From an uncultured Chlorobiota bacterium (GTDB lineage Bacteria > Bacteroidota > Bacteroidia > Bacteroidales > JAADGE01): a stretch of 64,000 bases of DNA. Shown here piece after piece: positions 31,072 to 51,747 of this stretch (positions are counted from its first letter, which is position 1; the number at the start of each line of letters is the position of its first letter). A program made the position numbers and the translations under genes. Location: positions 28,024-92,023 of the forward strand of contig CAMZKL010000031.1 of the NCBI GenBank assembly GCA_947311255.1. Reading direction: 5' to 3'. The notes beneath the pieces are model-generated. The model was not told where the DNA came from. It ran no database searches and saw only the letters and a list, made by a program, of their open reading frames with translations.

Positions 31072-31247
31072 AATAAATTTATTTAACATATTTATAAACT
31101 CTCTTAAATCCGCAAATAACGGTGTGAATAAACTAGTAAACAGAAAGTTAACTAAAATGTCATATCACTTTTATTAGATAATTCAAGCCGCGACTATCAG
31201 TTAGTTTTTGGCTTGCGGATATTAGGAACTCTTAAAAAAATAATTTT

Positions 31248-32306
31248 ATGAAACACACAGTATTAATTTTATCAATTTTTACCATGCTTTTCACAGCATG
31301 TAACGATGATGCACGGAAAACAGATAATGATGCAAAAGCAGATTCTTTAAAGAAAGTAGAAACTGCACTTCTGGAACAAGCACAAAAAGTTTTTAAAGTT
31401 TTACCTAAACTTGCAGAAAATACAGACAATGCTATTACAGATGCAAAAGTAAAATTAGGAAAGATTTTATATTTTGATACAAGACTTTCAAAAGAAGGAA
31501 ATCAATCTTGTAATACTTGTCATAATTTGACAACTTATGGAGTTGATAATTTGCCAACTTCACCGGGAGATAATGGTGGGCTTGGAACAAGAAATTCACC
31601 AACAGTTTTTAATGCAGCACTTCACAGAACTCAATTTTGGGATGGCAGAGCAAAAGATGTGGAAGAACAAGCAGGAATGCCTGTTACAAACCCTGTTGAA
31701 ATGGCAATGCCCGATGAAACTTCTGTAATTAAAAGATTATCAAAAATTGAGGCTTATAATAAAATGTTTGCTCAAGCATTTCCATCTGAAAAAAATCCTA
31801 TGACTTATAACAATCTTAAAAAAGCAATTGGAGCATTTGAAAGAACTTTAATTACAACCGATAAGTTTGATAAATATCTTGCAGGAGATGCAAGTGCATT
31901 AAATGAGCAAGAAAAAAAAGGATTAAATACTTTTATGAGTAAAGGATGTACCACTTGTCATTCTGGTGCAGCAATGGGAGGTGATTTGCTAATGAAATTT
32001 GGCATTCATAAAAATTACACCGAACTTATGGACAGCGTAGTTGTTGATGACGGACTTTTTGCAGAAACAAAATTAGAAAAAGATAAATTTGTTTTTAAAG
32101 CTCAATCATTAAGAAATGTTGAAAAAACATGGCCGTATTTCCATGATGGAAGCGTAAAAAATTTAAAAGAGGCTGTACAAATAATGGCAAAAACTGAATT
32201 AGGGCAAGAATTTTCTGAAGAAGAAATTAATGATGTGGTAGCTTTTCTTAAAACTTTAACTGCAAATATAAGTGAAGATGTAAAAACTGCACCTGAATTG
32301 CCATAA
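31248..32306 (+). CDS. di-haem cytochrome c peroxidase (CCP/MauG family)
   Basis: Lipoprotein-like signal (FTAC). Two CxxCH motifs (CNTCH, CTTCH). Confidence 0.85.
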   Translation: MKHTVLILSIFTMLFTACNDDARKTDNDAKADSLKKVETALLEQAQKVFKVLPKLAENTDNAITDAKVKLGKILYFDTRLSKEGNQSCNTCHNLTTYGVDNLPTSPGDNGGLGTRNSPTVFNAALHRTQFWDGRAKDVEEQAGMPVTNPVEMAMPDETSVIKRLSKIEAYNKMFAQAFPSEKNPMTYNNLKKAIGAFERTLITTDKFDKYLAGDASALNEQEKKGLNTFMSKGCTTCHSGAAMGGDLLMKFGIHKNYTELMDSVVVDDGLFAETKLEKDKFVFKAQSLRNVEKTWPYFHDGSVKNLKEAVQIMAKTELGQEFSEEEINDVVAFLKTLTANISEDVKTAPELP

Positions 32307-32364
32307 TTTATGTATATAATATGAATACTTGTAAAATGTAAACTGTCAATATTTTAAAATAATA

Positions 32365-32397
32365 AAAAGGCACAGATTTTTTATCTGTGCCTTTTTA
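32365..32397 (+). terminator. intrinsic terminator
   Basis: Stem aaaaggcacagat / atctgtgcctttt, followed by a T-run. Confidence 0.7.
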
Positions 32398-32444
32398 TAT
32401 ATTTAATAAGTAAGGAATAATTATGTTTTTAGCACACAAAAATA

Positions 32445-32452
32445 TATATTTG
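32445..32452 (+). promoter_or_regulatory. candidate -7 box (TATATTTG)
   Basis: 27 nt upstream of the ATG at 32479. Confidence 0.4.
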
Positions 32453-32478
32453 TTGAAATCTTAAAAAAATAAAAAGTT

Positions 32479-33306
32479 ATGAATTTATTATTATTACAAG
32501 GAACAGGAAAATGGGCTGATAAGGCTATAGAAATGGCAATTGCATATGGACCAAAAGTGGTTTTGGCAATTGTAGTATTAATTATTGGATTTTTTATTGC
32601 AAATAAAATTTCAAAACTTATTAAAAGAATAATGGGAAAAAGAGGTGTAGATGTATCTCTGCAATCCTTTGTTGGAAGTTTGGTTAGTGTACTTTTAAAA
32701 GTGATGGTTGTAATAAGCGTTGCAGATATGGTTGGAGTAGAAACAACATCATTTGTTGCAATAATTGGTGCCGCAGGTTTAGCTGTTGGTCTAGCACTTC
32801 AAGGTACTTTGCAAAATTTTGCCGGAGGTGCACTTATCATGATTTTTAAACCATTTAAAGTTGGAGATTTAATCGAAGCACAAGGGCAGTTGGGTGCGGT
32901 AAAAGAAATTCAAATTTTTGTTACAATTTTAACTACTTTTGAAAACAAAACAATTATAATTCCTAATGGAGTATTGTCTAATGGTACTATTACAAACTAC
33001 ACAACGGAAGGAAAAATTAGAGTTGATTTAAATTTTGGAATTGCATATAGTGCAAGTGTTAAAGATGCAAAAAAAACACTTGTTGAAGTAATGGATGCAC
33101 ACCCAAAAGTATTAAAAGATCCTGCACCTTTTGTTGGTATTGAATCTTTTGAAGCAAGTTTAGTAAAATTAGCTGTAAAACCATATTGCAAACCGGAAGA
33201 TTATTGGGATGTTTATTTTGACATTTATGAGCAGGGAAAAGAGGCTATAGAAAAAGCAAATGTTGAAGTGCCATTTCCTCAAATGGTTGTTCATATGGAA
33301 AAATAA
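32479..33306 (+). CDS. small-conductance mechanosensitive channel (MscS family)
   Basis: Three TM segments plus the MscS beta-domain motif (FKVGDLIE...G.V..I....T). Confidence 0.85.
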   Translation: MNLLLLQGTGKWADKAIEMAIAYGPKVVLAIVVLIIGFFIANKISKLIKRIMGKRGVDVSLQSFVGSLVSVLLKVMVVISVADMVGVETTSFVAIIGAAGLAVGLALQGTLQNFAGGALIMIFKPFKVGDLIEAQGQLGAVKEIQIFVTILTTFENKTIIIPNGVLSNGTITNYTTEGKIRVDLNFGIAYSASVKDAKKTLVEVMDAHPKVLKDPAPFVGIESFEASLVKLAVKPYCKPEDYWDVYFDIYEQGKEAIEKANVEVPFPQMVVHMEK

Positions 33307-33360
33307 AGTATAATTTATTAATTTGAGCTTGATATTGAATTAAATCTTCAGCTTAAAAGC

Positions 33361-33407
33361 AAAAAGCACCCTAATCTTTTGTGTTACAAAATAGGGGTGT
33401 TTTTTTA
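33361..33407. terminator. bidirectional terminator between convergent genes
   Basis: Stem gcaccctaat / ataggggtg (imperfect), with an A-run on one side and a T-run on the other. Confidence 0.55.
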
Positions 33408-33433
33408 TGCCCTAATTATACAATCCCATATAA

Positions 33434-34963
33434 TCAATTTCCAATTTTGAAAAATATAATGAAACTTGTTCCTTTTCCTTTCTCACTTTTTATTGAGATA
33501 TTGCCATTGTGCTCTTCTATAATTCTTTTTACATAACTCAATCCCAAACCAAAGCCTTTAACATCATGTATATTTCCGGTTGGAACTCTGTAAAATTTAT
33601 TAAAAATCTTTTTTTGATTTTCCTTACTAATACCTATACCATTGTCTTTTATTTCTATTTTTATTCCTTCTTCGTAGTTTGATGTTTTTACTTCGATTTT
33701 TGGAGGTGTTTTTTCTTTTGAGTATTTCACAGCATTGTCTAAAAGATTAAACAAAATATTTGTAAGATGGAGTTTATCTCCTTTTAAGATGAAATTTTTT
33801 GCATTCAAATCTACTATTATTTCACCATCTTTGTTCTTAACCTTAATATCCATATTTAAAACAGCAAAACTTATAAGTTCATGTATGTCAACATCTTTAA
33901 CATTAAAATGAATACTACCTTTTTCAAATAATGAAATTTGTAAAACTTTTTCAATCTGAAATTCTAATCTTTTACTTTCATCTTTAATAATTTTAGATAT
34001 TGATTTTAACTTTTTCTTTGAAATTTCAATAGAATCATCAGAAAGCATTTGTGAGGCAAGTGAAATTGTGGAAACAGGAGTTTTTAATTCGTGGGTCATG
34101 TTGTTTACAAAATCATTTTTTATTTCAGATAATTTTTTTTGTTTTAAGATAAGATAAATTATAAAGGCAAATGTGATAATAATTATAAATGTTATTATAA
34201 AAGATAGCAACATTGGTTTGGGAATATCTGAAGGGATAATATTATTATCTTTTTTAAAATACATTACCAAGTAATATTTAGATGCTAAAACATCATTTGG
34301 GAAAAGTAATATCTCGTAGGTTTCTTTAACATAGTTTAAGGTAAAACCTTTGGATTTAATTTTGTATATATTATTGTTGTCTTTTACACCATAAAAATAG
34401 TTGTAGTTTATTCCGTTAGAACTAAAAACGCTTGAAATAATTTTGTCAAATTCAACAGCTTTCAAACGTTTTTCAATTTGAGTTTCGCTGGCAATTAGTC
34501 TGTTTAAAATATCTTGAATAAAAAAAGTTTTTTTGCTGATATTTCCAATTATTCTTTGTTTTAAGTCTTCTTGGGTAAACTCTATATTGTTTCCAAAAAC
34601 ATCTTGTTGGGCTTCAACTCTATAAAGAGAATCGCCTTGTAAATAATAAACCGGATTTTGCTTAATTGTTGTATCGTCTTTGTTGTCATTGTTTTGACTG
34701 AAGTTCTCCTCAAAAAGAAATTTGCTGCCCATATGTTCTGTGCTATCTTTACTAAAAGGAACTGTTGACTCAGAAATAAGTAAAATAGCTTCATTTTCTT
34801 CAATTTGTTTAACTATTTCATATAATGCTTTATTCACTTTTCCTTCAAATTGTTGTTCTTCAATAATCAGAGCTTTTTCAATCCATGCTGCCTGAACCAG
34901 AATTAAAAAAATTACGGTTGCAATCATTATAACTGTTAGTAGCCTTATATATCTTTTTCGCAT
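33434..34963 (-). CDS. sensor histidine kinase (two TM, HisKA + HATPase_c)
   Basis: H-box is FVNNMTHELKTP, the N-box is LLDNAVKYS, and the G-boxes are DNGIGI and GFGLGLS. Confidence 0.85.
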   Translation of the reverse strand: MRKRYIRLLTVIMIATVIFLILVQAAWIEKALIIEEQQFEGKVNKALYEIVKQIEENEAILLISESTVPFSKDSTEHMGSKFLFEENFSQNNDNKDDTTIKQNPVYYLQGDSLYRVEAQQDVFGNNIEFTQEDLKQRIIGNISKKTFFIQDILNRLIASETQIEKRLKAVEFDKIISSVFSSNGINYNYFYGVKDNNNIYKIKSKGFTLNYVKETYEILLFPNDVLASKYYLVMYFKKDNNIIPSDIPKPMLLSFIITFIIIITFAFIIYLILKQKKLSEIKNDFVNNMTHELKTPVSTISLASQMLSDDSIEISKKKLKSISKIIKDESKRLEFQIEKVLQISLFEKGSIHFNVKDVDIHELISFAVLNMDIKVKNKDGEIIVDLNAKNFILKGDKLHLTNILFNLLDNAVKYSKEKTPPKIEVKTSNYEEGIKIEIKDNGIGISKENQKKIFNKFYRVPTGNIHDVKGFGLGLSYVKRIIEEHNGNISIKSEKGKGTSFIIFFKIGN

Positions 34964-35010
34964 TTAACTTAGTGTAAAGGGGTTTTTAAGCTCAATTTAT
35001 TTTTAAGTAC

Positions 35011-36141
35011 TTATAATCTTTGTGCTAATTGTTTTACCATTGATGTTTTCCATATCGCAAAAGTGCCTTCGTTTATTTTCTGTCTTGCAATTCTTACTAG
35101 TTCCAAATAAAAAGCTAAGTTATGAATACTCGCAATTTGTGCTGCTAATCTTTCATTAACTTTCATTAAATGTCGAACATATGCTTTAGAATAAAAAGAA
35201 TCAACATAAGAAGTTCCAAATTCATCTAGGGGAGAAAAGTCTTGTTCCCATTTTTTGTTTTTTATGTTAATTCGACCTTGCCATGTAAATAACATTCCGT
35301 TTCGTCCGTTTCTAGTTGGCATAACACAATCAAACATATCAGTTCCCAAAGCTATTCCTTCTAAAATATTTTCAGGTGTTCCAACTCCCATTAAATATCT
35401 TGGTTTATCTTCAGGCAGAATATTGTTTACAATTTCTAACATTTCATACATTTCCTCAGTAGGTTCTCCAACTGAAAGACCTCCAATTGCATTTCCTTCT
35501 CTCTCATGCGATGCAATTGTTTCTGCAGACTGTATTCTTAAATCTTTGTACGTACTTCCTTGAACAATAGGGAAATATGATTGTTCGTACCCATATAAAC
35601 CTTCTGTTTCATCAAATCTTTTTATTCCTCTTTCTAGCCAACGATGTGTAAGGAACATTGAATTTTTTGCATATTTGTAGTTAGAAGGGTAGGGCGGACA
35701 TTCATCTAATGCCATTATAATATCTGCACCTATACTTCTTTCTGTATCTACCACATTTTCGGGTGTGAAAAGATGTTTAGAGCCGTCAATATGTGATCTG
35801 AAAGTTACTCCTTCTTCTTTAATTTTTCTAATATCAGACAATGAAAACACTTGATAACCTCCACTGTCAGTAAGAATTGGTTTGTTCCAGTTCATAAATT
35901 TATGTAATCCTCCTGCTTTTTCAAGAGTATCAATTCCAGGTCTTAAATATAAATGATATGTATTTCCAAGAATAATTTGTGCTTTAATATCTTCATCAAG
36001 TTCTTTTTGGTGTACACTTTTTACCGAACCTAATGTTCCAACGGGCATAAAAATAGGAGTTTCTATAAGTCCATGAGCTGTATGTAGTTTGCCTGTTTTT
36101 GCTTTTGTAGTACTATCTTTTTTTATTATTTCAAATTTCAT
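35011..36141 (-). CDS. tgt: tRNA-guanine transglycosylase
   Basis: 376 aa with TDSGGYQVFS and the Zn-site region CVMPTRNGRNG. Confidence 0.9.
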   Translation of the reverse strand: MKFEIIKKDSTTKAKTGKLHTAHGLIETPIFMPVGTLGSVKSVHQKELDEDIKAQIILGNTYHLYLRPGIDTLEKAGGLHKFMNWNKPILTDSGGYQVFSLSDIRKIKEEGVTFRSHIDGSKHLFTPENVVDTERSIGADIIMALDECPPYPSNYKYAKNSMFLTHRWLERGIKRFDETEGLYGYEQSYFPIVQGSTYKDLRIQSAETIASHEREGNAIGGLSVGEPTEEMYEMLEIVNNILPEDKPRYLMGVGTPENILEGIALGTDMFDCVMPTRNGRNGMLFTWQGRINIKNKKWEQDFSPLDEFGTSYVDSFYSKAYVRHLMKVNERLAAQIASIHNLAFYLELVRIARQKINEGTFAIWKTSMVKQLAQRL

Positions 36142-36231
36142 CTTTATAGTATTCTTTCATTTATATATTGTTTCATCGATAAGTCTGTTATTAAAAGTAA
36201 CAATTTAACAATTTAAACAGTTTTTTTATTC

Positions 36232-36239
36232 TATTTTTG
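36232..36239 (+). promoter_or_regulatory. candidate -7 box (TATTTTTG)
   Basis: 17 nt upstream of the ATG at 36256. Confidence 0.35.
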
Positions 36240-36255
36240 CATAAAGGTAAAATTA

Positions 36256-36939
36256 ATGAATAAAAGTGAGAAAAAAAGATTAAAATTCAGTTTAATACTC
36301 CCCATTTTTTTTGTTTTTGTGATGTGGTTAGTAAAATTGTATGAATATTTTTTAAACTTACACTTTTACGAATACGGTATTTATCCTCAAAGATTTGAGA
36401 ACTTTAGCGGAATTTTTTTAGCCCCATTTATTCATGGAGATTTCAAGCATTTAATTTCAAATACATTTCCTTTTTTAATACTCGGAACTGGTCTATTTTA
36501 TTTTTATAGAAAATATGCTTATAAAGTTTTTTGGTTGATATTTATTTTTTCGGGATTTTGGGTATGGTTGGCTGCTCGTCCTTCATATCATATTGGTGCA
36601 AGTGGGGTTATATACGGATTGGCATCTTTTCTTATCTTTTCAGGTTTAATTCATAAAAATAAAGCATTAACTGCAGTTTCTTTAATAACTGTTTTTTTAT
36701 ATGGAAGCATGGTTTGGGGAGTATTGCCTATAAAACCAGGAGTGTCGTGGGAGGGACATCTTTTTGGTGCTGTTACAGGTTTAATAATTTCTATTGCTTT
36801 TGCAAACAAAAAACCTGCACAAGAAACTGTGAAAAAAAAGGAACAAAAAGATGAAATTTCAGAGTTTTCTGAACCTACTATAAGTAGCGATATATATAAT
36901 AAAGTAGAATATTTTTATGAAGAAGATATAAATGCTTAA
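36256..36939 (+). CDS. rhomboid family intramembrane serine protease
   Basis: Six TM segments, a GASGVIYGL catalytic Ser motif and a downstream His (EGHLFGA). Confidence 0.8.
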   Translation: MNKSEKKRLKFSLILPIFFVFVMWLVKLYEYFLNLHFYEYGIYPQRFENFSGIFLAPFIHGDFKHLISNTFPFLILGTGLFYFYRKYAYKVFWLIFIFSGFWVWLAARPSYHIGASGVIYGLASFLIFSGLIHKNKALTAVSLITVFLYGSMVWGVLPIKPGVSWEGHLFGAVTGLIISIAFANKKPAQETVKKKEQKDEISEFSEPTISSDIYNKVEYFYEEDINA

Positions 36940-37002
36940 TACAACTTATTAATTATTAACCTTTTGCTAACCTTTGTTTCTTTTGTTTATTAGATATTTT
37001 AA

Positions 37003-37010
37003 TAAGTTTG
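37003..37010 (+). promoter_or_regulatory. candidate -7 box (TAAGTTTG)
   Basis: 32 nt upstream of the ATG at 37042. Confidence 0.35.
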
Positions 37011-37041
37011 CAAAAAATCAATTATCTTGTTTTAATTTTAA

Positions 37042-38619
37042 ATGGACAAAATTTCACATAAATTATTTGCGGTTAAATTACTTCAAGCTTATACTGCTCT
37101 TATTAGTATGTTATTTATTTTAATAACAATACTTATTTATGTAAACGGTTTTAACTTAAATATGGTATTGGTTTTAAGTATCTCTGTTTCGTTATTGGTA
37201 TTAAGCCTGATTTTAACTTATTTTAAGCAATTAAATATTGCAAAGTTTATTGTAGTTATTTTTCCGCCCTACACTTTATTAATTATAAGCATATTAGAAA
37301 AATATTTCAATGTTGTAGCTAATACATATACTTTTTTAATACCAAGAATTGCAGTAATACTTTTTTTAATGCCACCAGTTATGTTTTTTGGTGTTAAGCA
37401 ATATAGTAAATTAATTATTTCATTAATTTTATTAAGCCCCGTTGTATTATTTTTTGATTATTTCCACCACCTATTTGGAATATACTTAGAAGAATTGCCT
37501 TATAATCAAAAGTTTTACACCATTTTATTAATAATTCTTTCTTTTTTTTATTCATTAGTTTTAGCAAGTGTTCTTTTATTTCAAAAATCAAATATTTTAT
37601 TCCAAAAGAAAATAAACAATCAAAATTTAAATATTTTTAAAGAAAAAGAGAAAACGGAAAAACAAAATAAAAAATTAAAAAATTTAAATGAAGAATTTTT
37701 AGCTCTTAATGAAGAGTTAAACCAGAAAAATGATGAGTTAGAAGCGATTTCAGAAGAATTTAAGCAAAATAATGAAGAATTACTAGTAACACAAGAAAGA
37801 ATTGTTGAAAGTGAAAAAAAATACAAACAACTCTATGAGAAAAGCGAAGATGCTTTTGAAAGCGTTAATTCAAGTATAAGGTATGCTAAAACAATTCAGG
37901 ATTCATTATTGGTAAAAGAAGAAACAATTAATAAGTGCTTTAATGATTATTTCCTTTTATTCAAACCCAAAGAAAAAATAAGTGGAGATTTCTATTATGT
38001 GAAAAAATATAAAGAGTATATTCTGTTTTCTGTTGCAGATTGTACCGGACACGGTATTCCTGGAGGCTTTATTACAATGCTTGGTATTACTTTTTTACAT
38101 GAAATAGTAAGTAACAAAAATGTTAATAATCCTGGCTTGGCATTAAACCTTTTAAGGAAAAAAATAAAAAATACTTTTAAAACTTTTGGGTCTGAAAACC
38201 CAAACGGAATGGATCTTGCACTTTGTGCCTTAAATACAAAAACTAATGTGTTAAGTTATTCCGGTGCATATAATCCTCTATGGATTATTAGAAACAATGA
38301 GTTGCATGAGTATAAAGCCACTCGAAACCCAATAGGCTTTAATTATGTTGAAACCGATTTTAAAAACTATGAAATTCAACTTCAAAATAATGATTTAATT
38401 TATATCTTTTCTGATGGTTTTCAAGACCAAATTAGTGAGGCAACAAATAAAAAGTTCTTATCTAAAAATTTTAAAAAGTTACTTTTAAACAATCAATTAA
38501 TTTCAATGAAAGAGCAAAAAGAAGTTTTAGAAAAAACTTTTAATGATTGGAAGGGCAACTATGAACAAGTAGATGATGTAACAGTTATGGGAGTTAAATG
38601 GAAAATCTCTAATGAATAG
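37042..38619 (+). CDS. membrane-anchored PP2C/SpoIIE-family protein phosphatase
   Basis: An N-terminal polytopic region is followed by a coiled coil. The C-terminal SpoIIE motifs are SGDFYYV, ADCTGHGIPG, FSDGFQDQ and DDVTVMGV. Confidence 0.8.
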   Translation: MDKISHKLFAVKLLQAYTALISMLFILITILIYVNGFNLNMVLVLSISVSLLVLSLILTYFKQLNIAKFIVVIFPPYTLLIISILEKYFNVVANTYTFLIPRIAVILFLMPPVMFFGVKQYSKLIISLILLSPVVLFFDYFHHLFGIYLEELPYNQKFYTILLIILSFFYSLVLASVLLFQKSNILFQKKINNQNLNIFKEKEKTEKQNKKLKNLNEEFLALNEELNQKNDELEAISEEFKQNNEELLVTQERIVESEKKYKQLYEKSEDAFESVNSSIRYAKTIQDSLLVKEETINKCFNDYFLLFKPKEKISGDFYYVKKYKEYILFSVADCTGHGIPGGFITMLGITFLHEIVSNKNVNNPGLALNLLRKKIKNTFKTFGSENPNGMDLALCALNTKTNVLSYSGAYNPLWIIRNNELHEYKATRNPIGFNYVETDFKNYEIQLQNNDLIYIFSDGFQDQISEATNKKFLSKNFKKLLLNNQLISMKEQKEVLEKTFNDWKGNYEQVDDVTVMGVKWKISNE

Positions 38620-39612
38620 TTTTACTTTTTTAAAAAGTTATTAATTGCAGATAAAAAAGATTTATTTGTAATGGGTTTTGTAAGATACTCGTCAAAAATA
38701 TGACCATATTTCTTTTTCTCTTCATTTGTTGCATTTGCAGTTATCGCTAGAATAGGAATATGTTTTAATTTTTTATTCTTTCTAATTATTTTAGCAGCAT
38801 CATAACCATTTAGTACCGGCATTTGTATATCCATCAGAATAATATCAGGAGTATATATTTTGAGTATATCAAGTGCCTCTTGTCCATTTACTGCATCTTT
38901 AATTTTAATATTATTGTTTCTTGAAAAAAGAGTAATTATTTCTCTGTTCATTTCTATATCCTCCACGTGTAATATTTTAACTTCTTTTATATTCAAAGTA
39001 TTTTTGTTACTTTTTAGTGCAATTTTGTCATTTCTTTTTTCAGAAAGAACCTTAATCTTTTTTAAAAATATTGTGAAAATTGTTCCTTTCCCTACTTCAC
39101 TTTGAACATATATTTTACCGTTTAACAGTTCAACAAGTTTTTTTGTGATAGCAAGACCAAGTCCGGTGCCACCATATTCGCGAGTTTTTTGCCCTTCAAT
39201 TTGCCTGAAAGTCTCAAAGATATTATCTAATTGATTTTTAGGAATTCCAATACCTGTGTCTTTTACTTTTATTAAAACATCAACAATATCTTCACTTTTC
39301 TTATTATTACATTCTTTTACTTCAAGAATAATATCTATTCTTCCGGTATTAGTAAATTTAATTGAATTACCCACAAGGTTTATTAAGATTTGGTTTAATC
39401 TATGCCTGTCAGTTAAAATATATCTTGGTACCGATTTGCCAATATTTACATTAATTGGAATATTTTTTTTGTTAGATATTATAAAAAATATTTTTGGAAT
39501 AATATTTATTGCTTCATATAAATCTGTATATTCTTTAACTATTTTAAGTTGTCCTGCCTCAATTTTAGAAATGTCTAGTATATCGTTTATGAGATGTATT
39601 AAATTTTTTCCA

Positions 39613-39618
39613 CTTAAA
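39613..39618. repeat. target-site duplication copy 1 (CTTAAA)
   Basis: Identical hexamer immediately flanking the element. Confidence 0.7.
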
Positions 39619-39754
39619 CAATGGGTCGTTACATTTCTTATCCACGAATGTACGAATAAACATAACTACCTTATTTTAAAGCTATTAGGTTTCTGTGGAC
39701 ACAAATACTAATCGCCTGATAAACAGGTAATTAAAAAAACTTAACGAACCATTG
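39619..39754. mobile_element. MITE-like non-autonomous insertion, 136 bp
   Basis: Terminal inverted repeats are caatgggtcgtta (39619-39631) and taacgaaccattg (39742-39754), matching 12/13. It is flanked by a direct CTTAAA duplication, has no coding capacity and interrupts a conserved HisKA helix. Confidence 0.75.
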
Positions 39755-39760
39755 CTTAAA
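39755..39760. repeat. target-site duplication copy 2 (CTTAAA)
   Basis: Identical hexamer immediately flanking the element. Confidence 0.7.
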
Positions 39761-40776
39761 GTAATCTTATTTAAATATGATTTGTTTTCAGGCTTGGTTA
39801 ATTTAGATTCTAGGATTTCCGAAAAACCTAAAATCGCATTCATCGGAGTACGAATTTCATGACTCATATTAGCTAAAAATTCACTTTTAAGTTTTGTTGA
39901 TTCTTTAGCTTGAAATTCTGCAATTTTAAGGTCTTTATTTTTTGATAAAAGAATTTTATTTAGCTTATTTAATTTTTGTGTTTTTTCATCAATTCTAATT
40001 TTTAATTCTTCTGAAAATTTAATCTCATTTTTAATTATAAGTTTTATCATAGACCACCCTATTAGCAATAAAAATAAATAGATAATACATGCCGTCAGTA
40101 ATGATTTTTTGAAATTGTTGTCTATGATACCTAATATATTTTGTTTAGACATATTAATGCTTATAATTCCTCTTAAATCTCCTAGCTTATAGTTGTATGC
40201 TTTATCATAATTATCTCGTACTGTTGAAGTTACATCTTCTCTTTTGCCATGGCAATTTAAACAAGATGTTTTAATGTAAAGTGGTGTGGAGCAGTAAAAT
40301 GCAGAGTCTAAATCTTTATAGAAGAAATCTTTTGAAGGATTTTTCTTAAAATATGAAATAATTTTAAGCTCATCTGAATTAGTCATATTAGATTTATTTC
40401 TAGGGCGGTCAGATACAGTTCGAATAGTTATTTTATGTTTAAGCCTTAATGAAAAATCTTCTGCAATATTTTTTATAGTTTTTGTAGGAAATAGATTAAT
40501 TGTTCTATTATCTATTGGAATATGATTTTCAATAAAAGCATTTTGATATATTTGCTTAAAAGAAACTAATAGTGCTATTAAAGATTTTGATTCGCTAGTA
40601 ATAATCATCTTCTTCAAATCTTTATCGGAAACATAATTATAGTAGAACTTAATGCTTATAATCATTAAAAACACCAAAGCATATATTTTAAAAATTAGAA
40701 CTCTTTTTTTTATTGAAAAATTTGAGATTTTCTTTGTAAAAGAATAAATTTATAGAATAACTAAAATACTTTACCA

Positions 40777-40784
40777 CAAATATA
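40777..40784 (-). promoter_or_regulatory. candidate -7 box (TATATTTG) for the hybrid kinase gene
   Basis: The reverse complement matches TAnnTTTG upstream of the kinase 5' end. Confidence 0.3.
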
Positions 40785-40977
40785 TACAAATAAAATAATT
40801 ATTGCAAATTACTTATTTTTAAATTTATTGCTTAATCCGTATAATATAAACTTAATCTGAATATTATCAGTATATTATTAAGGTGTGCTATGTTAGTGTT
40901 TTAACTTTGAAAGTGAAATAAGTTATAATCTAAAAATAAAATTTCAAAAAAAAGGTTGTATTAAAAAAAAATAATTT

Positions 40978-40985
40978 TATCTTTG
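40978..40985 (+). promoter_or_regulatory. candidate -7 box (TATCTTTG) for the str operon
   Basis: Matches TAnnTTTG, 28 nt upstream of the rpsL ATG. Confidence 0.45.
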
Positions 40986-41012
40986 CACCCCGAAATTAAA
41001 AATATATAAGAA

Positions 41013-41390
41013 ATGCCTACAATTCAACAGTTAATAAGAAAAGGAAGAAAAAAAGTAAAGAAAAAAAGCAAATCTCCTGCTCTTAATTCAAGCCCTCAAA
41101 AAAGAGGTGTATGCGTAAGAGTTTATACAACGACTCCCAAAAAACCAAATTCAGCAATGCGTAAAGTTGCAAGAGTAAGGTTAACAAACGACAAAGAAGT
41201 CAATGCGTACATTCCTGGTGAAGGGCATAATCTTCAAGAACACTCTATTGTTCTTGTAAGAGGAGGAAGAATTAAAGATTTGCCGGGAGTTCGTTATCAT
41301 ATTGTTCGAGGAACATTAGATACGCAAGGTGTTGACGATAGAACTCAAAGAAGATCAAAATATGGTACTAAAAGACCTAAAAAGAAATAA
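41013..41390 (+). CDS. rpsL: 30S ribosomal protein S12
   Basis: [12 protein letters not shown]... and [10 protein letters not shown]. Confidence 0.95.
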
Positions 41391-41485
41391 AACTTTAAAG
41401 CTGTAATTAGCACATAAGTATTAAAAAGTTACAAAAATAAACTATATACTTTAAATTTTACACTTTGTACATATTATAATAAGGT

Positions 41486-41962
41486 ATGAGAAATCAGAAA
41501 AAAAGAAAATTTAAAATTCAGGCTGACCCAAAATTTAACGATTTAATGGTAACTCAGTTTGTGAATAATCTAATGTTCAGTGGGAAAAAGAATATTTCCT
41601 ACAACATTTTTTATTCTGCATTAGATATCGTTGAACAAAGAACAAAAGATATTGAAGCATCTCCACTAGACATTTGGAAAAAAGCTATTGAAAACGTAAC
41701 GCCACAAGTTGAGGTTAAAAGCCGAAGAGTTGGAGGAGCAACATTTCAAGTGCCTACACAAGTTAACCCTTCCAGGAAAATGTCAATCAGTATGAAAAAC
41801 ATGATTAAGTTTGCAAGAGCTAGAAGAGGAAAAACAATGTCCGAAAAACTTGCAGCAGAAATTATGGACGCTTATAAAGGTGAAGGTGGAGCATTTAAAA
41901 GAAAAGAAGAAACTCACAGAATGGCAGAAGCAAACAAAGCATTTGCTCATTTCAGATTCTAA
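41486..41962 (+). CDS. rpsG: 30S ribosomal protein S7
   Basis: 158 aa. S7 sequence and operon position. Confidence 0.95.
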
Positions 41963-41970
41963 ATTATTAA

Positions 41971-44079
41971 ATGGCAATTGAAGAATTAAAATATACACGC
42001 AACATTGGTATCATGGCTCATATTGATGCTGGTAAAACTACAACAACCGAAAGGATATTGTATTATACTGGTGTGAATTATAAGATAGGTGAAGTACATG
42101 ACGGACTTGCAACCATGGATTGGATGGAGCAAGAACAAGAGCGAGGTATAACTATAACTTCTGCCGCTACAACTACTTATTGGAATGTAAGTAACCAAAA
42201 GTATAAAATAAATATTATCGATACTCCCGGACACGTTGACTTTACTGTTGAAGTTGAACGTTCTCTTAGAGTATTAGATGGTGCCGTTGCTGTTTTTTGT
42301 GCAGTAGGCGGTGTAGAACCACAATCAGAAACAGTTTGGAGACAAGCTGATAAATATGAAGTACCCGTAATAGCATTTGTAAATAAAATGGATAGAATGG
42401 GAGCTGACTTTTTTGGTGTTGTGGAACAAATAAAAGAAAAATTAGGAGCAAATGCAGTCCCTTTTCAAATACCAATTGGTTCAGATGAAGATTTTGTCGG
42501 ATTAATTGATTTAATAGAAAGGAAAGCATATACATGGTCGAAAGATGATGAATATGGAATTAAATATCTTACTTCTGAAATTCCTGAAAATTTAAAACAA
42601 GAAGTTGAAGAATGGAGAGAAAACTTAATTGAAGGAGTAATTGAGTTCGATGATGAAATCATGGAAAGATTTTTTGACGATAGAAGTAAAATAAGTGTCG
42701 AAGAATTTAAAGCTGTTGCTAGAAAAACAGTGTTAAAAAGGGAAGTAGTCCCCGTATTATGTGGTTCTGCTTTCAAAAACAAAGGAATTCAAATGTTATT
42801 AAATAGTATTGTTGAATTTCTTCCAAACCCCGTAGATATACCACCAGTTAAAGGAATTAATCCGAAAAATGATACTGAGATTGAACGTAAAGCTGATAGA
42901 GAAGAACCTTTATCAGCCTTAGTTTTTAAAATAGCATCTGATAAATTTATAGGTAAATTAGCCTACGTAAGAATTTATTCAGGCTCTTTAAAAGCTAAAA
43001 GCAATGTTTTTAATCCAAGGACAAATAAACGTGTTAGACTAGCAAACATTTATCAAATGCATGCAAATAAACAAATTGCAAAAGATGAGGTATTTGCTGG
43101 AGATATATGTGCAGTTGTTGGGTTTAAAGATATTCAAACAGGAGATACATTAACTTCTGAAAATAAAAAAATAGTTCTTGAAAACATTAAATTTCCTGAA
43201 CCGGTAATAGGAGTTGTTGTTGAACCAAAAGCTCAAAAAGATATTGAAAAACTAAATGCTTCTCTACAAATTCTTGCAGAAGAAGACCCTACATTTCAAG
43301 TTAAAACCGACAAAAATACCGGTCAAAGAATAATATCTGGAATGGGAGAATTACATTTAGAGATATTAATTGATCGCTTAGAAAGAGAGTTTAATGTAAA
43401 ATGTAACCAAGGAAAACCTAAAGTATCATATAAAGAAAGTTTAACTAAACAAGTTGAGCATACAGAAATATTTGATAAAGAAAACATTGGAGGAAAAGGT
43501 AAATTTGCAGAAATCACAGTAAGATTATCTCAGTACGAAGATGAAAATAAATTTTTATTTATCAATAATGTAGATGATACTAAAATACCAAAGAAATTTA
43601 TACCTTTTATTGAAAAAGGTTTTCATGAAGCAATGAATAACGGACCTCTTGCAGGTTATCCCTTAGATAATTTGAAAGTAGAATTAATAGGAGGTTCTTT
43701 TAAGGAAGAAGAATCAGACGAATTAGCTTTTGAAATAGTTGCACGTCAGGCATATAGAAATGCTACCGTTAAAGCAAATCCAATTTTAATGGAACCAATA
43801 ATGGATGTTGAAATACTAACACCAGGCGAATACTTAGGAGATATTGTTTCTGATTTAAATAAAAGAAGAAGTCAGATTAAAGGAACATCTGAAAAAATTA
43901 ATCTGCAAGTCATTAGTGCATCTGTTCCATTATCAGAAATGTTTGGTTATGTTACAATATTAAGGACGCTTAGTTCAGGAAGAGCATCTTCAACTATGGA
44001 ATTTTCACACTATGGTGAAGTTGATTCACGAATATCTAATGAAATAATAGCAAGATTAACTGGAAAAATATTTGTATAA
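41971..44079 (+). CDS. fusA: elongation factor G
   Basis: [17 protein letters not shown] and NKMD GTPase motifs. 702 aa. Confidence 0.95.
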
Positions 44080-44104
44080 TATATAATAACTAATGCTTTT
44101 TTAA

Positions 44105-44410
44105 ATGTCAAAAAAAATTAGAATAAAACTAAAATCATACGATCATAGCTTGGTTGATAATTCAGCTGAAAAGATTGTAAAAACTGTAAAAACTACCGGA
44201 GCAATTGTTAGTGGTCCAATTCCATTACCAACGCAGAAAAGAATTTTTACTGTATTAAGATCAACTTTTGTAAATAAAAAATCAAGAGAGCAATTTCAAC
44301 TTTCTTCTTTCAAAAGATTAATTGATATATACAGTTCAAACTCAAAAACTGTTGATGCCTTAATGAAACTAGAATTGCCAAGCGGTGTTGATGTAGAAAT
44401 AAAAGTTTAA
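44105..44410 (+). CDS. rpsJ: 30S ribosomal protein S10
   Basis: Sequence and operon order. Confidence 0.95.
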
Positions 44411-44436
44411 TAATAACTGGTAAAATTTAAAAAAAA

Positions 44437-45057
44437 ATGGCCGGATTAATAGGTAAAAAAATCGGTATGACATCGATTTTCAGTGCCGATGGGACTAATA
44501 TTCCATGCACTGTTTTAGAAGTCGGACCCTGCGTTGTTACACAGATTAAAACTGTTGAAAACGATGGTTACGAAGCTGTTCAAATAGCTTACGACGAAAA
44601 AAAAGAGAAAAGAACAAACAAACCTCAAATGGGGCATTTTAAAAATGCAAAAACTACTCCAAAAAGGAAAATTGTTGAGTTCTCACTTCTCAAAGGTAAA
44701 GAATATAAAGTTGGAGAAACTTTAAATGTTGATTTTTTTAATGACGATACTTGGGTTGACGTTACCGGAACTTCAAAAGGTAAAGGATTTCAAGGTGTTG
44801 TAAAAAGATATAATTTTAAAGGAGTTGGAGATGCAACTCACGGACAACATAACAGACTAAGAGCCCCTGGTTCATTAGGAGCGTCTTCATACCCTTCAAG
44901 AGTATTTAAAGGAATGAGAATGGCTGGAAGAACAGGTGGAGACAGAGTAAAAATCATGAACTTAAGGGTTATTAAGATTATACCTGAAAATAATCTAATC
45001 ATCGTAAAAGGATCCGTTCCCGGAGCACGTGGTTCATACATAATAATTGAGAAGTAA
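44437..45057 (+). CDS. rplC: 50S ribosomal protein L3
   Basis: Sequence and operon order. Confidence 0.95.
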
Positions 45058-45692
45058 TGAAACTAAACGTATTTAATATATCCGGAAAAGATACCGGAAA
45101 GACAGTTGAATTAGCAGATGAAATTTTTGCTATTGAACCAAATGATCATGTTATTTATCTTGACGTAAAACAAAATCTTGCAAATAAAAGACAAGGAACA
45201 CACAAAGCTAAAGAAAGAGGTGAGGTTAAAGGTAGTACAAGAAAAATAAAGAGACAAAAAGGAACAGGTACCGCAAGAGCAGGAACAATGAAAAATCCAT
45301 TATATAGAGGTGGAGGACGTGTATTTGGACCAAGACCAAGAGATTATAGTTTTAAGTTGAATAAAAAAGTAAAACAATTAGCTCGTATTTCAGCCTTATC
45401 TTATAAAGCAAAAGATAAAAATATTATTATTCTTGAAGACTTTGAATTTAAAGCACCTGAAACAAAAAAATATATTGATTTGACAAAAAATTTAAAGATT
45501 AATAATAAAAAATCAATATTAGTTTTTAAAAATGAAAATAAAAACGTATATTTGTCAGCTCGAAATTTGAAGCAATCAAAAGTATTAACTGTATCACATT
45601 TAACTACTTACGATGTGTTAAACAGTGAAACTTTAGTCTTGACAGAAAGCTCTTTAATCCAAATTAATGAGATTTTAGGCAAAAAAAAATAA
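45057..45692 (+). CDS. rplD: 50S ribosomal protein L4
   Basis: Sequence and operon order. TAATG overlap with rplC. Confidence 0.95.
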
Positions 45693-45737
45693 AAAATTAA
45701 AATTTCGATTGAATATTAATGAAATAAAATTAATCAG

Positions 45738-46028
45738 ATGAGTATCATTATTGAACCAATAATAACTGAAAAAATGACTGACAAAGCTGAAAAACTTAAT
45801 CAGTTTGGGTTTATTGTTGATAAGAAAACTAATAAAATTGAAATTAAAAAAGCTGTTGAGAAATTATACAATGTTCAAGTTGAAAGTGTAAACACTATGA
45901 TTTATGGTGGAAAAAGAAAAAATCGTAATACTAAATCTGGCTTAATTAAAGGAAGAACAAATTCATTTAAAAAAGCTATTGTTACATTAGTAGATGGTGA
46001 AACAATTGATTTTTACAGCAATATATAA
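45738..46028 (+). CDS. rplW: 50S ribosomal protein L23
   Basis: Sequence and operon order. Confidence 0.95.
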   Translation: MSIIIEPIITEKMTDKAEKLNQFGFIVDKKTNKIEIKKAVEKLYNVQVESVNTMIYGGKRKNRNTKSGLIKGRTNSFKKAIVTLVDGETIDFYSNI

Positions 46029-46034
46029 AAAATC

Positions 46035-46871
46035 ATGGCAGTAAAGAAAATTAAACCCGTAACTCCTGGACAAAGAAGAAAAATCGTAAATGTTTTAGAT
46101 GAAATAACAACATCAAAACCCGAAAAAACTTTAGTCATAGGAAAAAATAAATCCGGAGGTAGAAACAACCAGGGACGTATGACAATGCGTTATATTGGTG
46201 GAGGACACAAAAAATCTTATAGAATTATCGATTTTAAAAGAGATAAAGAAGGCGTACCCGCAACTGTTAAAACAATTGAATACGATCCTAACAGAACTGC
46301 ACTAATTGCTTTATTGTTTTATGCAGATGGTGCAAAAAGATATATAATTGCTCCAAATGGTCTTAAAGTTGGTGATGTAATTATTTCAGGTAAAGAAATT
46401 GCACCTGAAATAGGAAATACACTTTATCTTTCTGATATACCTATGGGAACAGTAATTCATAATGTAGAATTACAACCACAAAAAGGTGCTGAATTAGCAA
46501 GAAGTGCAGGTTCATATGCACAATTAGTTTCTAAGGAAGGAAAATTTGTTTTAATTAAATTACCATCTGGAGAAATAAGAAAAATTTTAGCAACTTGTAA
46601 AGCTACAATAGGAACAGTATCAAACTCTGACCATGCTCTTGAAAGATCTGGTAAAGCCGGCAGAACAAGATGGCAAGGAAGAAGACCTAGAGTAAGAGGT
46701 GTTGCTATGAATCCAGTTGACCATCCAATGGGTGGTGGTGAAGGAAAATCATCCGGAGGACATCCAAGATCAAGAAATGGTATTTTAGCAAAAGGATTCA
46801 GAACAAGAGGTAAAAAAGCATCAGATAAATATATAATTGAAAGAAGAAAATCTAAAAAACGTAAGAAATAA
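46035..46871 (+). CDS. rplB: 50S ribosomal protein L2
   Basis: Sequence ([10 protein letters not shown]) and operon order. Confidence 0.95.
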
Positions 46872-46877
46872 ATTTCT

Positions 46878-47138
46878 ATGAGCAGATCACTCAAAAAAGG
46901 ACCATACATTGACTATAAACTTGAAAAAAAAGTTGTAGAAATGAGCGAGTCAGGTAAAAAGAAAGTAATTAAAACTTGGGCAAGAAATTCCATGATTCCG
47001 CCAGATTTTGTAGGTCATACAATAGCAGTACATAATGGGAAAAAATTTATTCCGGTATATGTAACAGAAAATATGGTTGGACACAGATTAGGAGAATTTT
47101 CACCTACTAGAACTTATAGAGGACATAAAAAGAAATAA
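46878..47138 (+). CDS. rpsS: 30S ribosomal protein S19
   Basis: Sequence and operon order. Confidence 0.95.
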
Positions 47139-47140
47139 TA

Positions 47141-47542
47141 ATGGGCGTACGTAAAAAAGAAAGAGCAGATAAAATTAAAGAAGCAAAAAAGAATCAATAT
47201 TTTGCTATTTTAAGAAACTGTCCTACATCTCCAAGAAAGATGAGGATTGTTGCAGACCTTATAAGAGGAAAAGAAGTCTTAAAAGCTCTCGATATACTAA
47301 AATTTAACCCGAAAGAAGCATCAGGTAGATTAGAAAAACTATTAAAATCTGCAATTGCTAATTGGGAAAATAAAAACGATGGTGATAAACCAGAAGATTT
47401 TCATCTATATGTAAAAGAAATTAGAGTTGATTCTGCTGGAATGCTGAAACGTTTTAGACCTGCTCCTCAAGGAAGAGCACATAGAATTAGAAAACGTTCA
47501 AATCACGTTACTTTATTTATTGACAGCAAAGAAAAACAATAG
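47141..47542 (+). CDS. rplV: 50S ribosomal protein L22
   Basis: Sequence and operon order. Confidence 0.95.
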
Positions 47543-47543
47543 A

Positions 47544-48272
47544 ATGGGACAAAAAATTAATCCAATAAGCAATAGGCTTGGTATAATCAGAGGTTGGGAT
47601 TCTAATTGGTATGGTGGAGATAAATACGCCGACAAAATTCAAGAAGACAGTAAAATTAGAGTTTACTTAAAAGCTAGATTATCAAAAGCAAGTATTTCAA
47701 GAATTATTATTGAAAGAACACTTAAATTAATAACTGTAACAATTACTACTTCAAGGCCAGGTATTATTATTGGCAAAGGTGGTCAAGAAGTTGACAAACT
47801 TAAAGAAGAATTAAAGAAAATTACCGGAGGAAAAGACATTCAAATTAATATCTTTGAAATCAAAAAACCAGAATTGGATGCTGTTATAGTAGCAGAAAAT
47901 ATTGCTAAACAAGTTGAAGGTAATATTGCATATAGAAGAGCTGTTAGAATGGCTATTTCATCTGCCATGAGAATGGGAGCAGAAGGAATAAAAGTCCTTG
48001 TCGCAGGAAGACTCAACGGTGCTGAGATGGCAAGAAAAGAAATGTTTAAAGAAGGAAGAACTCCACTACACACTCTCAGAGCAGATATAGATTTCTATAA
48101 TTCTGAAGCATTAACAAAAGTAGGTCTAATAGGTATTAAAGTTTGGATTTGCAGAGGCGAAAAATTTGGAAAACAAGACTTAACTCCTAATTTCTCAAAA
48201 GCTCAAACAAAACGCCAATTTGCAGGAGGAAAAGGTGGAAGAAAATCAAGACCACCAAGAAGAAGAAACTAA
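47544..48272 (+). CDS. rpsC: 30S ribosomal protein S3
   Basis: The ATG at 47544 (MGQKINP...) is preferred over the TTG at 47520 used by the track. Confidence 0.93.
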
Positions 48273-48300
48273 AAATTATCAGATTTAACAAATAATAAAG

Positions 48301-48726
48301 ATGTTACAACCTAAGAAGACAAAATTTAGAAAGCAACAGAAAGGAAGAATGAAAGGTAACTCTGGAAGAGGAACCACAATAGCCTTCGGATCTTTTGCCA
48401 TAAAATCACTTGAAACTGCATGGGTAACAGGCAGACAATTAGAAGCAGCCAGACAAGCAGTTACAAGATATATGAAAAGAGAAGGAAATATTTGGATTCG
48501 TGTCTTTCCTGATAAACCTGTAACTAAAAAACCTGCTGAGGTTAGAATGGGTAAAGGAAAAGGAGAACCTGAATTGTTTGTTGCAAGAGTAAAACCAGGA
48601 AGAATTTTGTTTGAAGCAGACGGTGTTCCAATTGATGTTGCAAAAGAAGCAATGAGATTAGCAGCTCAAAAATTACCTGTAAAGACAAAATTTATTGTTA
48701 GAAGAGATTATGTTGAAACAATTTAA
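48301..48726 (+). CDS. rplP: 50S ribosomal protein L16
   Basis: Sequence and operon order. Confidence 0.95.
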
Positions 48727-48738
48727 TATAAAAGATTG

Positions 48739-48945
48739 ATGAAAAATTCTGAAATAAAAGAGTTAACAACTAAAGAGTTAATTGAAAGATTAGATAACGA
48801 ACAAACTAATAGAGTCAGTTTAAGAATGAATCATAAAGTAACTGACCTTGAAAACCCGCAACAAATTACTGAATCAAAAAGATTTATTGCTCGATTAAAA
48901 ACGGAATTACGTAAAAGAGAATTAAACGAAAATAAATCTAATTAA
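48739..48945 (+). CDS. rpmC: 50S ribosomal protein L29
   Basis: The ATG at 48739 is preferred. The track starts at the TTG at 48736. Confidence 0.9.
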
Positions 48946-48956
48946 GAATATACAAA

Positions 48957-49214
48957 ATGGAACAGAGAAATCTAAGAAAAGAAAGAATTGGTATTGTTAT
49001 GGGTGATAAGATGCAAAAATCCATTACTGTAGCTGTTCGTACAAAAATGAAACATCCCAAATACGGTAAGTTCATTACTGAAACTAAAAAGTATATTGCT
49101 CATGATGAGGAAGATACATGTAAAATGGGTGATAAAGTTAAGATTGCTGAGACAAGACCTCTCAGTAAAAGAAAAAAATGGAGATTAGTTGAAATTATTG
49201 AAAGAGCTAAATAA
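48957..49214 (+). CDS. rpsQ: 30S ribosomal protein S17
   Basis: Sequence and operon order. Confidence 0.95.
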
Positions 49215-49216
49215 TC

Positions 49217-49582
49217 ATGGTACAACAAGAAAGTCGATTAAATGTTGCTGATAACAGTGGAGCTAAAGAAGTTTTAGTTATCAGAGTATTAGGAGGAACA
49301 AAAAAACGATATGCTACAATTGGAGATAAAGTTGTAGTAACAGTTAAAAGTGCAATTCCTTCAAGTGAAATAAAAAAAGGAACAGTAGCTACAGGTATAG
49401 TTGTAAGAACAAAAAAAGAAATTCGAAGAAAAGATGGTTCTTATATTAGATTTGACGATAATGCTGTTGTATTGCTTAATGCAACCGGTGAAATGAGAGG
49501 AACTCGTGTATTCGGACCAATTCCCAGAGAGTTAAGAAGTTCAAACATGAAAATTATTTCATTAGCACCCGAGGTATTATAA
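49217..49582 (+). CDS. rplN: 50S ribosomal protein L14
   Basis: Sequence and operon order. Confidence 0.95.
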
Positions 49583-49600
49583 ATTGAAAATAAAATTCTG

Positions 49601-49930
49601 ATGCAAAAGAAGTTACATATAAAGAAAGGAGATATAGTTATTGTAAACTCCGGAAATGACAAAGGAAAAAAAGGACGTGTTATTTCTATAAATAGAGATA
49701 ACCATAGAGCTATTGTTGAAGGTGTTAATATGATATCTAAGCATACTAAACCAAATGCAAAATTTCCTGAAGGAGGAATAATTAAAAAAGAAGCAGCCGT
49801 TCATATTTCAAATCTGAATGTTGTTTGTCCTCAAACCGGAAAACCAACAAGAGTTGGAAGAAAAAAAAATGATAACGGAAAATTAGTTCGTTATTCGAAA
49901 AAATCTGATAATAAACAAGAGATTAAATAA
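49601..49930 (+). CDS. rplX: 50S ribosomal protein L24
   Basis: Sequence and operon order. Confidence 0.95.
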
Positions 49931-50478
49931 TGGAAAAAAGAGTTCCTACATTAAAGAAAAAATTCACAGACGAAATAATTCCTACTCTTATGAAAGAATT
50001 TAATTACACTAGTGTAATGCAAGTTCCAAGATTAGAGAAAATTGTTTTGAATCAAGGAGTTGGACAAGGAGTAGCAGATAAAAAGATTGTAAAAACTGCT
50101 CAAGACGAATTAACAATAATTGCAGGACAAAAAGCAATTCAAAGAAATTCAATAACTAATATTTCTAACTTTAAGTTAAGAGAAGGCATGCCAATTGGCG
50201 TTAAAGTAACTTTAAGAAGAGATAATATGTACGAATTTCTCGAAAAACTTCTTGTAATTGCTCTTCCAAGAATGAAAGATTTTCGTGGAATACCCGGTAA
50301 ACTTGATGGAAGAGGTAATTATACTCTTGGAATTGAAGAACAAATTATTTTCCCTGAAATAGAATTAGATAAAATAGATCGAATAATGGGAATGAATATA
50401 ACTTTTGTTACATCAGCAAGAACTGATGAAGAAGGTTACGCATTATTAAAACAATATGGATTTCCTTTTAAAAAATAG
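49930..50478 (+). CDS. rplE: 50S ribosomal protein L5
   Basis: Sequence and operon order. Confidence 0.95.
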
Positions 50479-50483
50479 ACAGT

Positions 50484-50753
50484 ATGGCTAAAGAATCAAT
50501 GAAAGCTCGAGAGAGAAAACGACAAAAACTTGTTGACAGATACGCTGCGAAAAGACAAAAACTTAAAGATGAAGGCGACTGGGTAGGTTTGCAAAAGTTA
50601 CCTAAAAATTCTTCAAAAGTAAGATTACATAACAGATGTAGCTTAACAGGAAGACCAAAAGGATATATGAGACAATTCGGAATAAGCAGAATTACATTCA
50701 GAGAAATGGCATCACAAGGATTAATTCCTGGTGTTAAAAAAGCAAGTTGGTAA
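50484..50753 (+). CDS. rpsN: 30S ribosomal protein S14
   Basis: 89-aa long form, in the expected operon position. Confidence 0.95.
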
Positions 50754-50775
50754 AAATATTAAATAATTTATAAAG

Positions 50776-51174
50776 ATGATTACAGATACTGTTGCAGATT
50801 ACCTAACTCGAATAAGAAATGCCCAAATGGCAAAACATAGAGTGGTTGAAATTCCCGCTTCTAATTTGAGAAAAGGAGTAACCGAAATTTTATTTAACCA
50901 AGGTTATATATTAAGTTATAAGTTTGAAGAGGATAATAAGCAAGGAAAAATTAAAATAGCTTTAAAATATCATCCTAAAACAAAAGTACCTGCCATTAAA
51001 AAAATCGAAAGAGTTAGTACTCCTGGATTAAGGAAATATACGTCAGCTAATGATATGCCACGTGTATTAAATGGTTTAGGTATTGCTATTATATCTACTT
51101 CAAAAGGTATAATGACAAATAAAGAAGCCGTAAGACAAAATGTTGGTGGTGAAATTATTTGCTACGTTTATTAA
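50776..51174 (+). CDS. rpsH: 30S ribosomal protein S8
   Basis: Sequence and operon order. Confidence 0.95.
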
Positions 51175-51192
51175 TAAGTATAAAGAAAAGAT

Positions 51193-51747
51193 ATGTCACG
51201 AATAGGTAAATTACCAATAAGCATACCTGAAGGAGCTAAAATTGAAATCTCTGATGATAATGTTATAACTGTTAAAGGTAAACTTGGAGAGTTAAAACAA
51301 GCAATTCATAAAGATATCAAATTAGAAATTGATGGAAATATAATTAATGTTACTAGACCATCCGATTCAAAAGCTCATAAATCTTTCCACGGACTATACA
51401 GAGTATTAGTTAATAATATGTTGGAAGGAGTTTCAAAAGGATTTGAAAAAAAATTAGAAGTAATTGGTGTTGGATACAGAGCATCTGTAAAAGGACAACT
51501 TTTAGAAGTATATGTAGGATATTCTCATCCTATTATTTTTGAACTTCCAAAAGAAATAAGTGTTGAAGTGAGTCAAGAAAAAAGACAAAATGCTTTTATT
51601 ACATTAAAAAGTTTCGACAAACAATTACTTGGACAAGTAGCCGCAAAAGTTCGTTCTTTCAGAAAACCTGAGCCATATAAAGGTAAAGGAATAAGATACG
51701 TTGGAGAATATGTAAGAAAGAAAGTTGGAAAAGCAGCAGCAGAATAA
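51193..51747 (+). CDS. rplF: 50S ribosomal protein L6
   Basis: Sequence and operon order. Confidence 0.95.
   Translation: MSRIGKLPISIPEGAKIEISDDNVITVKGKLGELKQAIHKDIKLEIDGNIINVTRPSDSKAHKSFHGLYRVLVNNMLEGVSKGFEKKLEVIGVGYRASVKGQLLEVYVGYSHPIIFELPKEISVEVSQEKRQNAFITLKSFDKQLLGQVAAKVRSFRKPEPYKGKGIRYVGEYVRKKVGKAAAE

Follow-up and report, generated by a model that had tools for sequence, protein, structure and literature searches.

Bacterial MITEs include the Correia elements of Neisseria, RUP of Streptococcus pneumoniae, and Nezha of cyanobacteria. The 136-bp element described here, found in a 64-kb stretch of DNA that was analysed as a whole (the window), resembles bacterial MITEs in its size (100–200 bp), terminal inverted repeats (TIRs) and short target duplication; it lacks an ORF, and is presumably mobilised in trans. 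Bacterial MITEs also form families whose many copies are nearly identical, a trait seen here in its 171-bp relatives. In all features that we tested, the element is thus a typical bacterial MITE. To our knowledge, the combination of its terminus, CAATGGTTCGTTA, with a target duplication of 5–6 bp corresponds to none of Correia, RUP and Nezha.

Prokaryotic MITEs have been described as almost exclusively intergenic (PMC4596501). The copy in the window, in contrast, sits in the middle of a gene, as is expected of a very recent insertion that has not yet been purged. The Bacteroidota MITEs turned up by our literature search are those of Porphyromonas: BrickBuilt/MITE239, MITE464/PgRS, MITE293 and MITE700 in Porphyromonas gingivalis, which have similar TIRs but otherwise unrelated sequence (PMC4596501). 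The element in the window is comparable to these in that it belongs to the same phylum, is non-autonomous, and has only its TIRs in common with other elements. The TIRs of BrickBuilt are of the GAGACCTTTGCA type and match IS5-family ISPg elements (ISPg1/4/9) (PMC4596501); CAATGGTTCGTTA bears no resemblance to them. Duplications are irregular in Porphyromonas MITEs, in contrast to the consistent 5–6 bp of the CAATGGTTCGTTA family.

We are highly confident that the 136-bp element is a non-autonomous DNA transposon that recently inserted within the coding region of a hybrid histidine kinase gene. Inverted termini, a target duplication of 5–6 bp, the absence of an ORF, presence/absence polymorphism between genomes and multi-copy relatives together constitute the signature of such an element.

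Anatomy of the element

The element occupies window positions 39619–39754 and has a G+C content of 32%. Read directly from the plus strand, the region runs CTTAAA, CAATGGGTCGTTA, 110 nt, TAACGAACCATTG, CTTAAA. The left copy of the target duplication (39613–39618; TTTAAG on the coding strand) is supported by direct reading, by the single hexamer of a sister genome and by the spacing test described below, and the right copy (39755–39760) by direct reading and by the sister comparison. Between them lie the left TIR (39619–39631), which has a mismatch at position 7 relative to the family consensus CAATGGTTCGTTA, a non-coding interior of 110 bp (39632–39741), and the right TIR (39742–39754). The latter is the reverse complement of CAATGGTTCGTTA, and its sequence recurs unchanged at the ends of every one of the 20 further family copies that we found. 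The two 13-bp arms pair with a single mismatch (12 of 13 positions), and more weakly for about 8 bases further inward, to about 21 bp. A first-pass annotation of this DNA had proposed a 136-bp element with such ends and identical flanking hexamers, and our reading agrees with it to the base. All reading frames of the element are closed or trivially short, so that it contains no transposase gene, again as had been proposed. An attC-like site was also considered and rejected: each strand has GTTA towards its 5' end and TAAC towards its 3' end, whereas an attC site has them the other way round.

A terminus search of the 64-kb window for a second copy or degenerate termini returned only a chance match with two mismatches at 59372, and the earlier impression, gained by eye, that the window holds a single copy thus stands. 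One copy is known in this organism, as seen in 64 kb of the source genome and in the flanks of relatives. In a permissive Rfam scan of 39300–40100 nothing matched within the element, the two chance-level matches both lying outside it; nor does the element contain a Bacteroidota -7 promoter motif or a terminator-like site. The fold of 39613–39760 is better than that of shuffled sequences (z = -5.3 for the minus strand, -3.8 for the plus strand), mainly due to the terminal stem.

The window holds one inverted repeat that matches at 12/13 or better and is bordered by an exact 6-bp repeat. Per simulated window 0.12 such structures are expected by chance, and one was present in 7 of 60 simulations. 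The bare repeat structure is therefore only weakly improbable by chance, and the case is carried by the gene context and the evidence from outside the window, which make the insertion certain.

The interrupted kinase gene

The host gene is a minus-strand hybrid histidine kinase, in whose reconstruction Pfam identifies a Tll0287-like sensor, HisKA, HATPase_c and Response_reg. Its 5' part (39755–40665, minus strand) comprises the Tll0287-like haem sensor, a membrane segment, a coiled coil, the His box and the first DHp helix, and its 3' part (38622–39612, minus strand) the second DHp helix, HATPase_c and the receiver domain. The ORF of the 5' part (39685–40677) ends in ...YLNKITLS followed by 22 nonsense codons, as its frame enters the element and reaches a stop at 39685; the same tail, followed by out-of-frame residues, had been noticed before. 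Pfam finds the Tll0287-like and HisKA domains in this fragment, although HisKA is covered only at profile positions 2–46 of 66 (50 bits), and HATPase_c and Response_reg in the 3' part.

Excising 39613–39754, that is, the element and one hexamer, yields an open frame of 1914 nt (637 codons from a TTG, 633 from the first ATG) without any other lesion. The reconstructed junction reads ...KITLSGKNLIHLINDILD..., and HisKA now spans profile positions 2–66 with 76 bits, which bears out the in-frame junction predicted by the first-pass annotation. Of the 66 positions of the HisKA profile, the insertion hits position 46, which belongs to the second helix of the phospho-acceptor domain; the first-pass annotation had placed the element in the helix that follows the phospho-accepting His.

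The distance between the His box and the LINDILDxSK motif provides a test of the hexamer. Across 122 motif pairs from the 120 best homologues, this spacing is 42 aa in 111 pairs, 43 aa in nine and 45 aa in two. The reconstruction has 42 aa with a single hexamer and 44 aa with both. Since the canonical spacing is obtained only when the element and one hexamer are taken out, the hexamer is a genuine target duplication and not native sequence. None of the homologues has coding sequence across the element, an observation that had been named beforehand as one that would speak against an insertion.

The interrupted kinase is, judging from its sequence, most likely dead. The 5' product is predicted to end 34 residues past the phospho-accepting His, with 22 nonsense residues added. 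In the 3' part the first in-frame ATG, GTG or TTG is a GTG at 39374, inside the ATPase domain, and with no start before it the second DHp helix cannot be made. The neighbours are a convergent gene for a SpoIIE-type phosphatase and the divergent S12 operon; given these orientations, no polar effect on them is expected. The ORFs at 38622–39374 and 39685–40677 are thus the two parts of a single kinase gene that was broken recently; a pseudogene is their proper annotation.

The empty site in a sister genome

Through a look-up of the S12 protein we reached a sister locus (L034; GCA_054023215.1, contig JBPMQK010000055.1) that is syntenic with the window, with 99.4% identity over 31087–39618 and 99.7% over 39756–51390. 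One hexamer is the meeting point of the two alignment blocks. Here the sister genome reads TTTTTTCCA-TTTAAA-GTAATC and the window TTTTTTCCA-CTTAAA-[136 bp]-CTTAAA-GTAATC, the surplus of the window being exactly 136 + 6 bases. In the sister genome the kinase gene is uninterrupted and encodes 633 aa with all four domains. Thus the empty-site allele that the first-pass annotation had suggested looking for does exist, with one hexamer and an intact kinase. Over about 33 kb compared (window 31014–64000), the 142-bp segment is the only large indel, and the rest of the comparison consists of substitutions and indels of at most 5 bp.

A third genome, GCA_947311445.1 (contig CAMZKV010000058.1, L035 positions 1–373), is about 95% identical to the window. 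Its contig stops within the 5' end of the kinase gene, at 373 bp upstream of S12, and it is therefore uninformative on the insertion site.

The comparison of window and sister is one of presence and absence and gives by itself no polarity, and deletion between short direct repeats is known to occur. The element might thus predate the split of the two genomes, the sister allele having arisen by precise excision or by deletion between the hexamers, with the window in the ancestral state. We consider this very improbable. Both hexamers of the window are CTTAAA, whereas that of the sister is TTTAAA; excision between two CTTAAA copies would leave CTTAAA, and an extra mutation would be needed to obtain TTTAAA, so that the insertion of the element into an allele with CTTAAA is the better fit. 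Moreover, the gene is otherwise undamaged over 1914 nt and the duplication is perfect, both pointing to a young insertion, and the more distant homologues all have the uninterrupted spacing. A recent non-autonomous insertion, as had been proposed from the window itself, is supported both by the empty site and by the family of elements found elsewhere. This insertion represents a clean case of a mobile element creating strain-level variation in signalling capacity within an uncultured Bacteroidota lineage.

A family of elements with the same terminus

We scanned 596 Gb of species-representative genomes for both termini, exact and 95–125 bp apart. The scan returned two matches, against an estimated 0.02 or so expected by chance, both in Bacteroidota MAGs: a 141-bp element in a Saprospiraceae MAG (L001, 4146–4286) and a 146-bp element in a Bacteroidales MAG (L002, 2787–2932). 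Their inverted termini are perfect over 13 bp, and extend to 17 and 20 bp, respectively. Neither has a clean target duplication: the flanks of the Bacteroidales element match at four of five positions (GATAA/TATAA), those of the Saprospiraceae element at none. Later mutation of the flanks, or recombination between copies, could be the cause.

A metagenome scan for termini 98–128 bp apart gave no matches, while one for termini 126–156 bp apart gave 17 loci (L013–L029) with 18 copies of a 171-bp element. These copies represent 13 distinct insertion sites and are at least 96.5% identical to each other. The target duplication is perfect at all 13 sites, being 5 bp long at nine of them and 6 bp at four. 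The 6-bp duplication claimed earlier therefore holds at the window site but not as a fixed length, since the family shows either 5 or 6 bp. Targeting of TTAA in the manner of piggyBac was considered for the family and rejected, as most of its duplications lack TTAA.

The CAATGGTTCGTTA consensus is seen in the Saprospiraceae and Bacteroidales elements and in all 17 metagenome loci. Counting the window copy, there are four size classes with unrelated interiors; the common part consists of the 13-bp terminus and a few A/T-rich bases. Unrelated interiors are expected of independent derivatives that share only the ends bound by a transposase. Family members other than the window copy are intergenic or lie at gene edges. 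The G+C content of the hosts ranges from 29% to 46%, with 29% for the window. A T9SS sorting domain, DUF1573 and DUF3078 encoded in the window show that its organism belongs to Bacteroidota, and the 90%-identity clusters of its S10 and L16 proteins are named "Bacteroidales bacterium".

The element family seems to be undescribed; a full-text search of the literature for the terminal string gave only unrelated PCR primers. A broader reading, in which CAATGGTTCGTTA marks an undescribed transposon lineage spanning Bacteroidota, with at least four MITE types, a transposase possibly of a new or poorly known family, and an unusual target preference, is speculative and we hold it to be rather unlikely. 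In either case, CAATGGTTCGTTA with a duplication of 5–6 bp offers a simple search key for the family.

In the host of the 171-bp family there is a further MITE-like repeat, here called B, which is about 160 bp long and has inverted ends TTAGGAACGAGTAAATAATAAC. It is found at 12177–12338 of L013, 7434–7593 and 2667–2731 of L028, 3331–3486 of L019, 10105–10263 of L021, and 12269–12357 of L018. A B copy lies near five of the 13 sites occupied by the 171-bp element: four of these are within 5–7 bp of a B end, and the one in L018 at 46 bp from a partial B match. Several further sites show B-like CGTTCC ends. This suggests that the 171-bp element prefers the ends of another element as target.

The family also bears on two other readings of the window copy. 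The first is that the segment is a functional intervening element, be it an RNA that splices itself or is processed, or an invertible segment within the gene, by which the kinase is kept or switched. In its favour, the strong terminal stem of the transcript (z = -5.3 on the coding strand) would bring exon-like ends together. This stem, however, is the inverted repeat itself plus the palindromic TTAA core of the duplication, and Rfam introns and ribozymes give no match in the segment. Its 136 nt are far below the size of group I or group II introns. The extra length of 142 nt equals 3 x 47 + 1, and not being a multiple of three it changes the reading frame whichever way the segment is oriented, so that a recoding inverton is excluded. 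Finally, the other members of the family are in intergenic DNA. There is thus hardly any room left for a functional intervening element. Similarly, it is extremely unlikely that an assembly error in a MAG, such as a chimeric join or the mis-collapsing of a repeat, added the 142 bases: the source seems to be an NCBI draft assembly, and look-ups with the truncated kinase ORF and several neighbouring proteins retrieved no independent assembly with the filled allele, but an artefact would not yield an exact 6-bp target duplication, nor inverted termini matching those of 20 elements from unrelated samples.

Putative mechanism and search for an autonomous partner

For the preferred reading, the recent insertion of a non-autonomous DNA transposon, we propose the following mechanism. 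A transposase, most likely a DDE enzyme whose gene lies at another genomic location, would bind the CAATGGTTCGTTA ends, cut the target with a stagger of 5–6 bases and join the element to it, and repair of the gaps would then create the target duplication. The insertion would have inactivated the kinase, as far as can be told from the sequence. The current understanding of transposition is not challenged by this element. The event itself is ordinary, recent and pseudogenising; the new leads are the family and its possible target preference.

The first-pass annotation had also proposed to search for further copies and for an autonomous partner with matching TIRs. The first part was successful, in that the same termini are found elsewhere on elements flanked by target duplications, whereas no autonomous partner was found in the loci searched. 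Outside the S12-to-L17 ribosomal-protein cluster the window has 30 ORFs of at least 150 aa, and none of them is a transposase. No extra termini were found in the fetched family and viral loci (L001–L033), nor partial matches to the element ends in L001–L029 or the window. The scans of genome and metagenome collections covered terminus spacings up to 156 bp.

The IS1634 family of insertion sequences has target duplications of 5–6 bp and ends beginning with C. It would fit as a candidate parent by duplication length and by the terminal C, and other families with duplications of about 5 bp are candidates as well; we regard IS1634 as a lead only.

In plasmids, blastn gave nothing but noise (E of 0.04 or worse). 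Six scans of viral contigs gave mostly chance occurrences of the terminus within recurrent phage coding sequence, and the singletons among these contigs had no inverted partner terminus. Seven viral contigs (L003–L007, L010 and L011) contain the 18-mer CAATGGTTCGTTATAAAT in one homologous stretch that resembles a conserved phage gene, and four of the seven have, exactly 3214 bp away, a direct copy of the 13-bp terminus with two mismatches. The CAATGGTTCGTTATAAAT matches are due to chance and unrelated to the element, and they caution against searches with a single terminus. One further viral contig (L008, 1–76) has a lone CAATGGTTCGTTA terminus 58 nt from the contig end, after which a frame that begins with ATG stays open up to the edge of the contig. 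This may be the end of a longer, possibly autonomous, element; no other contig extends it.

Other observations in the window

A 163-bp segment at 60588–60750 is shared with the 99.6%-identical sister (L037) and absent from GCA_947311445.1 (L038), which is about 95.5% identical here. A 9-bp direct repeat, TGTTTCATG, borders the segment on both sides and contains the start codon of a RidA-like gene on the minus strand. Inverted termini are absent, and the segment occurs only once in the window. Either an insertion or a repeat-mediated deletion would account for it.

On the minus strand, 15838–17313 is an ORF for an Eco57I/MmeI-type N6-adenine methyltransferase. It is directly adjoined by a 227-aa ORF (17313–17996) that has no Pfam match. 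Together (15838–17996), the two ORFs may form a restriction-modification module.
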